Of a stretch of 64,000 nucleotides of DNA, positions 12,274-14,196 are shown one piece after another. The position numbers were made by a program, and so were the translations under genes. How positions within the stretch are numbered: the stretch's first letter is position 1; each line of letters opens with the position of its first letter. The notes below the pieces were generated by a model. It was not told the DNA's origin and did no database searches. It was given only the letters and a program-made list of their open reading frames with translations. Source of the stretch: a virus (taxonomy: Duplodnaviria; Caudoviricetes). The DNA lies in the IMG/VR virus record IMGVR_UViG_3300047551_002158; one strand, 5' to 3'.

Positions 12274-12749
12274 ATTCTATTCCTTTATCTGCAGGAATAG
12301 AATTGATTAAAGAATTTGAAGATTGTATATTAACTGCATATAAAGATCCTCATACTGGAAATCTTCCGATTACAATAGGATGGGGAAGCACTAAAGATTT
12401 TGATGGGAAACCATTCAAAATGGGAAGAAAGATTACTCAACAATATGCCGATGATCTATTCATACATCAAATTGAAAATCAATTTCTTCCAACTCTCAAA
12501 AAAATCCCCTACTGGAGTGAGATGAATGAAAATCAACAAGGCGCAATTCTTAGCTTTGCTTATAATCTTGGTGCTAATTTTTATGGAAGCCCTGACTTTA
12601 GCACGATAACTAAAGTTCTTAAGAATAAGGAATGGGATAAAGTTCCTTATACTCTTTATCTTTATCGCAATCCAGGAACTAAGGTAGAAGCAGGTTTAGT
12701 AAGAAGAAGAAAAGCAGAAGGAGACCTTTGGAAAAAACAATGGAAATAG
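12270..12749 (+). CDS. GH24 phage lysozyme (endolysin)
   Basis: IKEFE..AYKD..ITIGWG E-D-T triad, AILSFAYNLG, GLVRRRKAE; TTG start. Confidence 0.9.
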   Translation: MNSIPLSAGIELIKEFEDCILTAYKDPHTGNLPITIGWGSTKDFDGKPFKMGRKITQQYADDLFIHQIENQFLPTLKKIPYWSEMNENQQGAILSFAYNLGANFYGSPDFSTITKVLKNKEWDKVPYTLYLYRNPGTKVEAGLVRRRKAEGDLWKKQWK

Positions 12750-13060
12750 ACAGAAGTTTAAGAACAGTAGTGGATCAATATCATTTCACTAAAGTTACTT
12801 TTTCGGTTGATGGCGAACCAAAAGTAATTGGAAGACTTTTAGATATTAGTGATTATGGATTTTGTATTACAATAAAGCAAATGATATCTAAATTTGAAGT
12901 TGAGGATAGGGGTCTTTTGAGTTTAGAAAAGGATGGAAAAGTAATCAAAATACCTGTAACCTTAAAGTGGATAGATCCAACAGATGCCACTCTAAGGTGT
13001 ATAGGTTTTCAGAGTAAATATAATCTAACCTTTTCGGAATTAGGTTCTTATATTAAATAA
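12740..13060 (+). CDS. PilZ-like domain protein
   Basis: DRSLR near the N-terminus, LLDISDYGF (DxSxxG), then V.LKW and IGFQ beta-strands typical of PilZ. Confidence 0.6.
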   Translation: MEIDRSLRTVVDQYHFTKVTFSVDGEPKVIGRLLDISDYGFCITIKQMISKFEVEDRGLLSLEKDGKVIKIPVTLKWIDPTDATLRCIGFQSKYNLTFSELGSYIK

Positions 13061-13389
13061 GGTTCAGCAATACCCTCATTCAACATTCTTTCGTTGACTG
13101 TGACTGGATCGCCAACAAGATAAAGAACTCCAAGTATTCTTCCATACTTGTCTTCTTTAAATGTTTCAATAATCCACTCTCCTTCACGGGAGAGTTCTTT
13201 TTCTAACCATAATCTTGCTTCAATTCCTTTTTTCTTTTCCTCTATATTTAAAGTTCTTGTTTCTGCAGCATTAATATCTTTCAGACGAACTCTGTGAGAA
13301 ACAGTCATCCAAAAACCTAAATCAATATCAAGATCAACAGTGTCGCCATCAATTACTCTATTGATCTTTTTTATTTTGTACTGGTACAT
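13048..13389 (-). CDS. Thermonuclease (SNase-like) family protein
   Basis: RVIDGDTV, RVRLKDINAAE, DKYGRILG motifs. Confidence 0.88.
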   Translation of the reverse strand: MYQYKIKKINRVIDGDTVDLDIDLGFWMTVSHRVRLKDINAAETRTLNIEEKKKGIEARLWLEKELSREGEWIIETFKEDKYGRILGVLYLVGDPVTVNERMLNEGIAEPYLI

Positions 13390-13586
13390 TGAGTTTCCTT
13401 TAGTGTTCTTTTCTTTGTAACTGTTTTATATATTTCTATTCGGTCTCCAACTTGCCAATCAGAAAATCCATTACACCGAACACCACATTCAAATCCTGCT
13501 GATACTTCTTTTACATCTTTATCGCCACGACGAAGGGAATCTAAATTTCCTTCAAAAACAATTTCTTCCTTTTTATTTTTCTTCAT
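13371..13586 (-). CDS. Stand-alone fragment of the translation initiation factor IF2 C-terminal (C2) domain, 71 aa
   Basis: VFEGNLDSLRRGDKDVKEVSAGFECGVRCNGFSDWQVGDRIEIYKTVTKKRTL aligns by eye with the last ~55 aa of bacterial IF2; start taken at ATG 13586. Confidence 0.8.
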   Translation of the reverse strand: MKKNKKEEIVFEGNLDSLRRGDKDVKEVSAGFECGVRCNGFSDWQVGDRIEIYKTVTKKRTLKETQCTSTK

Positions 13587-13692
13587 TTTGCACCTCATCG
13601 AAGGATAACTTAAGTATGTAGTAAATGACCCAAGCAACTCCAACAAGTCCAATACCTAATAATATATTTACACTCCAAACTACATTATTCAT
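13573..13692 (-). CDS. Small membrane protein (39 aa, MNNVVWSVNILLGIGLVGVAWVIYYILKLSFDEVQNEEK)
   Basis: Read by hand; ATGA overlap with the upstream gene; one transmembrane helix. Confidence 0.7.
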   Translation of the reverse strand: MNNVVWSVNILLGIGLVGVAWVIYYILKLSFDEVQNEEK

Positions 13693-13889
13693 TTTTTCTC
13701 TACAGCGTCAAGAATTCTATCCAGTTTTCTTTCTTGTTCTTCTTTAACTTCTTGTAAAGTTTTTTCTATCTGGATAATTTTTTGTTCTTGAATGGTAGTC
13801 TTCTGCTGTAATCCCCAGAAGCTAGTGAAACCACCAATGATGGCAGCACCAAGTAATGAAGTTGCTATAGTTCCCATATTAAGTTCCAT
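13689..13889 (-). CDS. Small membrane-anchored coiled-coil protein (possibly holin-like)
   Basis: N-terminal hydrophobic helix followed by a charged heptad region. Confidence 0.55.
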   Translation of the reverse strand: MELNMGTIATSLLGAAIIGGFTSFWGLQQKTTIQEQKIIQIEKTLQEVKEEQERKLDRILDAVEKK

Positions 13890-13896
13890 TTTAATT

Positions 13897-14091
13897 TTAG
13901 TATCTACCCTCTTGTTTATGTATCCAAGTTTTGAGTTCGTGGAGATAGTTTCTCAACATATCTGCTTTTTGTAGATGCCAAACATCACCACTCTTGAAGT
14001 ATTCTTGAGTGTGGTTATCTATTGCTTTGAGAATGTTATGTATCGGTGCGTTCCAAGGTTCACGCTTGGGTGTGTTCCATTCTCTTGGCAT
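13897..14091 (-). CDS. Hypothetical protein of cyanophage type
   Basis: MPREWNTPKREPWNAPIHNILKAIDNH; compact ORF within the minus-strand operon. Confidence 0.75.
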   Translation of the reverse strand: MPREWNTPKREPWNAPIHNILKAIDNHTQEYFKSGDVWHLQKADMLRNYLHELKTWIHKQEGRY

Positions 14092-14094
14092 ATA

Positions 14095-14196
14095 TCACTT
14101 TTTCTTACCTCCGTTCTTTGCCTTTTTCGCAGTCGCATTACCTTGATTTTGTTTTGAAGGTCCTTTCTTACCCTTCTTGTTTGGCGACTTAGACAT
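14095..14196 (-). CDS. Small Lys/Gly-rich basic peptide (33 aa, MSKSPNKKGKKGPSKQNQGNATAKKAKNGGKKK)
   Basis: Read by hand; AAGGA RBS and CTAAATA late promoter upstream; stop 3 nt before the next ATG. Confidence 0.7.
   Translation of the reverse strand: MSKSPNKKGKKGPSKQNQGNATAKKAKNGGKKK

Follow-up and report, generated by a model that had tools for sequence, protein, structure and literature searches.

A small cyanophage gene, designated mini-IF2 here, encodes the C-terminal half of a single domain, the C2 domain, of bacterial translation initiation factor IF2. This is a genuine phage gene of host origin that has been neo-functionalized. The DNA analyzed, called the window below, is the whole 64,000-nt stretch of IMG/VR record IMGVR_UViG_3300047551_002158, and mini-IF2 occupies nucleotides 13371..13586 on its minus strand. 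What is new is an IF2 half-domain among the host-derived accessory genes of cyanophages and in the viral tinkering with translation. A separately encoded and selected IF2 half-domain, or a phage IF2 fragment, was encountered neither in the literature searched nor in PHROGs nor among 50,697 phage genomes.

Structure of the Mini-IF2 Gene

Mini-IF2 was recognized from the list of ORFs and the similarity to IF2. The ORF encodes 71 residues (P0001) and starts with the ATG at 13586. A Shine-Dalgarno-like sequence, GAGGTG (13591..13596, minus strand), lies 4 nt from the ATG when counted from the hexamer and 6 nt when counted from its GAGG core. The window offers two alternative starts: a TTG leading to a 93-aa version, and an in-frame ATG 4 codons upstream of 13586. 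Relatives have an in-frame stop codon directly before their Met-Lys start, indicating that 13586 is the conserved start.

The 3' end is less uniform. The proteins of relatives end with KKRTLKK, and the closest relative (P0002, 97% identical) ends with KENK at the start of the nuclease gene. The last 9 residues of the window protein are a window-specific extension into the nuclease gene. In the corresponding stretch (13371-13400, minus strand), the window copy lacks the ancestral stop codon after KRTLK.

Mini-IF2 overlaps both of its neighbors, as the original prediction had noted. Upstream, the stop of a gene for a 39-aa membrane peptide (13573..13692, minus strand; phrog_814, E = 1.4e-10) overlaps the start of mini-IF2 by 14 nt. 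Downstream, the start of a gene for a 113-aa homologue of staphylococcal nuclease (SNase; 13048..13389, minus strand; Pfam SNase, E = 2.4e-10; phrog_452, E = 6.6e-34) overlaps the 3' end of mini-IF2 by 19 nt. Farther upstream, on the same strand, are a 66-aa membrane/coiled-coil ORF (13689-13889), a 64-aa protein called PREWNTP here (13897-14091), and a Lys-rich 33-aa ORF (14095-14196). These genes form a tightly packed minus-strand cassette (13048-14196) between lysozyme/PilZ genes and fiber genes. A scan for sigma-70 promoters before the cassette revealed no convincing site; a TAAATA-like box noticed merely by eye upstream of 14196 is not put forward as a promoter.

Similarity to the C-Terminal End of IF2

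The IF2-homologous core comprises residues 8-62 (13401..13565, minus strand), which correspond to the strands beta4, beta5, and beta6 and the basic tail of C2. In a phmmer search against PDB sequences, 16 of the 17 matches are the extreme C-terminus of IF2, and the remaining one is a chance match (E = 0.99). The best match is to residues 785-839 of 840 in 7uiu_x (E = 5.6e-11). The isolated C2 domain of Geobacillus stearothermophilus (1d1n) is matched at residues 46-92 of 99 (E = 1.1e-9), and residues 835-889 of the 890 residues of Escherichia coli IF2 are aligned with residues 8-62 of mini-IF2. Among 185,579 species genomes, the closest sequences are IF2 proteins of Cyanobium, Synechococcus, and Prochlorococcus, with 56-64% identity. 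The E values of tblastn against cyanobacterial genomes go down to 3e-22, far beyond chance. The Pfam profile PF03144 (GTP_EFTU_D2) is matched with 17.6 bits (E = 0.0054), below its curated cut-off of 30.3 bits, and only at profile positions 28-71 of 73.

The rest of IF2 is not there. When six full-length host IF2 proteins were searched by tblastn against the window and 14 related phage loci, other parts of IF2 were absent, and only the last 50-73 residues were matched. The N-terminal half of C2 was not detected in the window or the related phage loci by HMM either (best E = 6.2), so no separately encoded complement was found in this DNA. Pfam revealed no GTP-binding domain, and the G2 GTPase and C1 domains of IF2 are missing. 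The product of mini-IF2 is neither an IF2 nor a complete barrel of the EF-Tu-D2 type, and it has no intact fMet pocket.

These results bear out several claims made from the DNA sequence in the original prediction: the core matches the extreme C-terminus of IF2, the upstream DNA encodes the membrane peptide of phrog_814 and no remainder of IF2, and about half of the C2 barrel is covered (the last 62 of ~111 alignment columns). A stand-alone, translationally coupled mini-gene for the C-terminal half of C2 only is supported.

Gene Family and Purifying Selection

A length-restricted search of 5.8 billion proteins yielded 28 clusters of proteins of 62-70 aa, 77-97% identical to the query. All of them have the same Lys-rich start and end near KKRTLKK. 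Several members are automatically annotated by JGI as "translation initiation factor IF-2". In an exhaustive phmmer search, the family is found as one 50%-identity representative (E = 2e-29), and the next match has an E value of 7e-16. Other short IF2-like matches of phmmer were considered as independent mini-gene families. The 16 inspected are most likely fragments instead, among them gene calls that begin with a Met or Val codon inside IF2 and others whose start looks chimeric. By tblastn, no cyanophage was matched among the 50,697 phage records of INPHARED, where the matches are only bacterial infB in contaminated or prophage-type records. PHROGs contain no family for mini-IF2.

Selection was analyzed with ten distinct DNA sequences over a gap-free core of 54 codons. 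The median of pairwise dN/dS is 0.12, with dS ranging from 0.09 to saturation. The maximum likelihood codon model gives omega = 0.054, with lnL of -701.9 versus -800.0 (omega fixed at 1, kappa fixed at 2). These values show that mini-IF2 is a genuine gene under strong purifying selection, not debris. The same truncation is thus shared by 28 clusters at a low omega, rather than confined to a single genome with dN/dS near 1. The earlier description of mini-IF2 as an integrated operon member agrees with the conserved family, the strong selection, and the start/stop overlaps.

The opposite reading would be that mini-IF2 is not used as a protein, but is either the decaying 3' end of an infB gene acquired by transduction or recombination, or a duplicate of a host gene end of the attP type. 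It is in fact a truncated piece of a host gene, and prophages can sit beside infB, as in one contig (L100) where the infB 3' end is followed by an integrase gene. However, the low omega is accompanied by saturated synonymous change, and the start, the ribosome-binding site, and the length are conserved across the 28 clusters. The composition is fully ameliorated, and the DNA identity to hosts is at most ~76% over ~100 nt. No integrase is seen among the ORFs checked around the gene, and the closest cultured relatives are T4-like Kyanoviridae. The debris reading is effectively refuted, with hardly any probability left to it. An attP-type copy was rejected, as there is neither a nearby integrase among the ORFs around the gene nor a near-identical stretch of host DNA.

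DNA nearly identical to mini-IF2 is present in sequencing runs from 14 studies, mostly of freshwater. Contigs covering the gene were found in three metatranscriptome libraries from two studies, one of them with a single mismatch over 145 nt. This is a weak sign that the mini-gene is transcribed: the RNA evidence consists of assembled contigs with small shares, DNA carry-over is possible, gaps in the coverage carry no meaning, and strand, transcript ends, and level are not readable from it.

Carriers and Origin

The window also carries psbA (Photo_RC, E = 7e-91), a PstS-like gene, and genes for peroxiredoxin and gnd. Its nearest relatives at the DNA level are the freshwater Kyanoviridae S-SRM01 and DSL-LC02/03. 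Metagenomic contigs with the mini-gene carry psbA and T4 gp9/10-like, SegE-type, and lysozyme genes. The content of psbA and T4-type genes and the kinship to Kyanoviridae indicate that the carriers are T4-like freshwater cyanophages.

In the phylogenetic tree, all 29 phage sequences fall into one clade (support 100/100) on a stem of 0.6 changes per site. This clade is nested in the Cyanobium/Synechococcus group of IF2 (97/91), apart from high-light Prochlorococcus, with the limited resolution of a segment of ~66 residues. The GC content of mini-IF2 is 32% (GC3 15%), and that of the phage is 37% overall, whereas the infB 3' ends sampled from Cyanobium and Synechococcus have GC contents of 58-65% and GC3 of 73-89% (80-89% in Cyanobium). 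When compared with 80 host infB ends, mini-IF2 reaches a DNA identity of 72-76% at best, over 108-138 nt. The composition is ameliorated relative to host infB, implying that the capture is old.

Judged from these sequence comparisons, mini-IF2 is shown to descend from one capture of the last ~60 codons (55-60) of a Cyanobium/Synechococcus-type infB. The long stem, the shift from acidic to basic, and the rewiring of a loop described below show a period of rapid change after the capture, followed by tight constraint. All features expected of a host-derived accessory gene, namely the phage context, the nesting in a host lineage, and the purifying selection, are found.

Retained and Lost Parts of the C2 Domain

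The C2 domain is a six-stranded barrel, and fMet-tRNA binds near its beta1-beta2 and beta4-beta5 loops (PMC4611024). The fMet pocket consists of R654, Q655, F657, G667, and E713 in the numbering of G. stearothermophilus (PMC4611024). On its own, the C2 domain equals native IF2 in the strength with which it binds the acceptor end (PMC4611024). In E. coli, R847, which corresponds to R700 of G. stearothermophilus, is needed for high affinity, and the substitution R847G strongly lowers the affinity for fMet-tRNA (PMC8709274). The roles of residues below are taken from the review PMC4611024 and from PMC8709274.

Of the 112 alignment columns that host C2 occupies, mini-IF2 covers columns 51-112. The alignment of the phage protein starts inside the third strand region, and continues through beta4, the beta4-beta5 loop, beta5, beta6, and the basic tail. 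In the model of host C2, the strands are at residues 12-29, 32-45, 49-54, 57-69, 76-78, 82-87, and 98-107, and the homologous core begins at the fourth of them. Only strands 4-6 of the six-stranded barrel are therefore encoded by mini-IF2, and the complete barrel is not present. The Lys-rich leader lines up with the basic "RVxRGK" turn of the host, suggesting that the leader may have been retained in diverged form and not added.

All of the 16 IF2-universal positions in this segment are retained. R20 (codon 13527..13529, minus strand), equivalent to R847 of E. coli and R700 of G. stearothermophilus, is invariant in all 65 aligned sequences. E33-C34-G35 (codons 13482..13490, minus strand), equivalent to E713-C714-G715, are also invariant. 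R654, Q655, F657, G667, and C668 were lost with the N-terminal half. Accordingly, one of the five fMet-pocket residues is present, E33 at the place of E713.

The most characteristic change is at G21-D22-K23 (codons 13518..13526, minus strand), where the beta4-beta5 loop is rewired from x-K-D of hosts to G-[D/N]-K of the phage family. In IF2, the invariant Arg is followed by a Lys with 89-100% conservation. In the phage family it is replaced by D or N, and the Lys is shifted by one position. This replacement indicates that the tRNA-binding loop is altered. Other changes fixed in the family are G37 to Q/K/R, R/K40 to G, E46 to V/I, and A52 to I, and two positions have larger hydrophobic residues. 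The second Cys of "ECG..C" is seen in 85% of picocyanobacteria and in 40% across all cyanobacteria sampled, and is invariant in the phage family. The core has a pI of 8.0 in the phage, compared with 4.9 in Cyanobium-type hosts and 6.4 in the sampled AT-rich Prochlorococcus, and the whole phage proteins, with their Lys-rich ends, have pI values of 8.6-9.6.

The original prediction described mini-IF2 as the fMet-tRNA-contacting tip of IF2. That the SLRR and ECG segments are implicated in fMet-tRNA binding is supported (PMC8709274, PMC4611024), and both the Arg of SLRR (R20) and the Glu of ECG (E33) are present. The description is nevertheless overstated, because four of the five fMet-pocket residues are missing and the Lys after the Arg is replaced. 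With most of the pocket missing, mini-IF2 is not a simple module for fMet recognition.

AlphaFold2 predicted the whole host C2 domain with a pLDDT of 85.3 and a pTM of 0.72 from 34 sequences. For the mini-protein, the pLDDT is 58.7 and the pTM 0.28, despite a deeper alignment of 65 sequences. This difference suggests that the half-barrel probably needs to be completed by a partner or by self-association. The prediction of a two-copy complex scored 0.39 relative to a mark of 0.42, and weighs neither for nor against dimerization. Foldseek found no PDB match to the monomer, which is expected and uninformative for a model of such low confidence (pLDDT 59). In the ESM Atlas, the family member P0009 is found only with unnamed small clusters.

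Gene Order around Mini-IF2

In 13 of the 14 loci, the genes are on one strand in the order of the Lys-rich ORF, PREWNTP, the membrane peptide, Lipase_3, mini-IF2, a 70-81-aa membrane-anchored protein, and SNase, with the membrane peptide, Lipase_3, and the membrane-anchored protein present in some loci only. The exception is contig L014, in which mini-IF2 lies behind a lysozyme gene and is convergent to the nuclease gene on the opposite strand. The upstream neighbor is thus variable (the membrane peptide, Lipase_3, or the lysozyme of L014), and its stop overlaps the start of mini-IF2 each time. This shows that mini-IF2 is always translationally coupled to whichever gene lies upstream. In the clade of the window, the 70-81-aa ORF is missing and the nuclease is short and divergent (112-113 aa). 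Other carriers have a 137-aa nuclease (e.g., L007:6407-6820) preceded by the 70-81-aa ORF.

The phage DSL-LC02 has the complete cassette without mini-IF2, and its membrane-peptide gene leads directly into the 70-aa gene. This phage has the PREWNTP and Lys-rich ORFs as well. The cassette without the mini-gene and the variation of neighbors between loci indicate that mini-IF2 is an independently selected insertion and not a fixed partner of the nuclease. The suggestion that mini-IF2 guides the adjacent nuclease is weakened by DSL-LC02, and also by L014 with its nuclease gene on the opposite strand. The insertion site is a recombination-prone accessory region.

The genomic context is relevant to another possibility, that mini-IF2 is a re-used scaffold unrelated to translation. 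Here, the beta-hairpin piece would bind a partner from the cassette or some other target, and the IF2-type residues would be kept only to hold the small beta-sheet together. Candidate partners are the membrane peptide, the 70-aa membrane-anchored protein, the nuclease, and lysis proteins. In favor of this reading, the gene is always in the same accessory region, where genes for small membrane proteins, lysozyme, lipase, or SNase are its neighbors. The clade has a long stem branch (0.6), changes are fixed in the functional loop, and the mini-protein is not predicted to fold alone. On the other hand, the immediate neighbors vary between loci so that none of them is evident as a fixed partner. 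The cassette of DSL-LC02 is complete even though mini-IF2 is absent, and the residues R20 and E33, which are on the surface, are invariant. A re-used scaffold is considered unlikely, but it deserves some weight.

Several features of the region were observed besides. The PREWNTP/Lys-rich stretch (13897-14196, minus strand; L101, L102) is the only part of the region conserved at the DNA level in cultured Kyanoviridae, and is shared by S-SRM01, DSL-LC02/03, S-RIM4, S-H35, and S-B64. Neither the PREWNTP protein nor the Lys-rich ORF belongs to any Pfam or PHROG family. In the window, an ORF with a PilZ domain (12728-13060, plus strand; Pfam E = 7.3e-6) follows the lysozyme gene and is convergent on the nuclease gene, and the mini-IF2 of L014 occupies the position of this PilZ ORF behind lysozyme. 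In one sub-lineage (L002, L010, L012, L013, and L103), a gene for a ~198-aa Lipase_3 protein, absent from the window, is directly upstream of mini-IF2 with a start/stop overlap.

Possible Functions

It can be tentatively proposed, at somewhat less than an even chance, that mini-IF2 is a small basic RNA- or ribosome-binding modulator acting at the ligand of the IF2 C2 domain. The small basic protein would keep the surface of IF2 C2 around the beta4-beta5 loop and the ECG strand. Its ligand might be the 3' acceptor end of initiator tRNA, which is single-stranded, or the site where C2 docks on the ribosome. In an infected cell, mini-IF2 would either compete with host IF2 or shield or hold the end of the tRNA, and modulate translation initiation in this way. 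Since the half-barrel is unlikely to be stable alone, its fold would probably be completed by self-association or on the ligand.

The invariant features are the Arg/ECG surface and the hydrophobic and Gly residues of the local beta structure, and the protein has gained positive charge and ends rich in Lys. Plain recognition of fMet is disfavored by the rewired loop and by the missing pocket. Further points against the proposed modulator are that the conserved residues may be kept for folding instead of ligand binding, and that the mini-gene is absent from the close relatives DSL-LC02, DSL-LC03, and S-SRM01, which do without it. That the half-barrel represents a new kind of viral translation factor is a possibility that we regard as doubtful. 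If it does, the infecting phage could use it to protect or sequester initiator tRNA, to re-route this tRNA, or to prevail over host IF2 in competition, and mini-IF2 would be the first virus-encoded IF2 derivative, a functional half-domain evolved from an essential host protein.

The retained surface could also be understood as a mimic. Mini-IF2 might imitate the exposed C-terminal end of host IF2 and absorb a factor that modifies, cleaves, or recognizes it, such as a sensor of host defence, a protease, a kinase, or a modifier carried by a phage. What is retained is exactly the most conserved surface segment of IF2, in a host-derived sequence under strong selection, and phages target initiation factors, as exemplified by the T7 kinase that phosphorylates IF1-3 (PMC6375957). 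A good mimic should stay near the host sequence, however, while the mini-IF2 family is only ~60% identical to it, with reversed charge and a rewired loop, and no candidate partner gene is linked to mini-IF2. The literature search revealed no defence or modification system that acts on the C2 domain of IF2, and we know of none. Such a decoy is improbable.

Comparison with Known Systems

The nearest known structure is the C2 domain of IF2 itself (PDB 1D1N, 3JCJ, and 7UIU). The homology extends over residues 8-62 with E values of 5.6e-11 to 1e-9, the universal residues of the segment, including the equivalent of R700/R847 and E-C-G, are kept in the phage protein, and its nearest relatives are the IF2 proteins of picocyanobacteria. 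The phage protein differs in consisting only of beta4-beta6, with no G, C1, or N-terminal C2 part. It is basic and not acidic, has the rewired beta4-beta5 loop, and is a separate protein of 62-71 aa.

E. coli produces IF2-beta and IF2-gamma, N-terminally shortened isoforms translated from internal starts of infB, which have complete G, C1, and C2 domains and remain initiation factors. They are similar to mini-IF2 in being shorter IF2-derived proteins from a start inside the IF2 reading frame. Unlike these isoforms with their complete G, C1, and C2, the phage protein keeps less than 7% of IF2.

Phages carry whole host-like genes, tRNAs, ribosomal proteins, and peptide deformylase. The host-derived accessory genes of T4-like cyanophages include psbA, hli, pstS, gnd, and peptide deformylase, some of them shortened compared with those of hosts. 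Mini-IF2 resembles these genes in its picocyanobacterial origin, ameliorated composition, and purifying selection, and in its location in an accessory-gene-rich region of a cyanomyovirus beside psbA, the PstS-like gene, peroxiredoxin, and gnd. As the phage peptide deformylase shows, the fMet end of translation is already a target of cyanophages (PMC6375957). These accessory genes encode whole domains or enzymes, whereas mini-IF2 encodes half of one domain of an essential translation factor and cannot perform the host function as such.

If mini-IF2 acts on initiator tRNA or the ribosome, it would be a new viral hold on translation initiation, and a natural minimal fragment for dissecting how IF2 C2 recognizes the tRNA end. 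If its function is another one, it would be a clean case of a fragment of an essential protein gaining a new function. In either case, the capture was single and datable, with a burst of change after it and tight constraint on the gene since then. The mini-gene is abundant in freshwater metagenomes, and the protein is small and biochemically accessible.

Rearranged and Unrelated Loci

The JGI contig L103 (1-1430) contains Lipase_3, an intact mini-IF2 (221-400) ending with KKGV and not KKRTLKK, and a Methyltransf_24 gene inserted at the 3' end of this mini-IF2. These are followed by an SNase-like N-terminus fused to the 3' half of mini-IF2 (1073-1237, P0038), and then by the 70-aa gene. The arrangement has the appearance of a gene insertion in which ~120 nt of the target were duplicated, and it is a further example of the plasticity of the region. 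In a metagenomic contig from the sequencing run X19, the start of the nuclease gene is connected to the membrane-peptide gene by 168 other letters, which replace the 231 nt with the mini-gene (window 13390-13622). In this relative, the 168 letters represent either an allele that is shorter or strongly divergent, or another insert. The contig L100 (1-1416; IMG/VR 3300023300_000450) has the 3' end of a non-cyanobacterial infB at its edge, and a tyrosine integrase gene is present ~130 nt downstream of it on the other strand. It appears to be a prophage integrated beside infB, unrelated to the cyanophage mini-gene.
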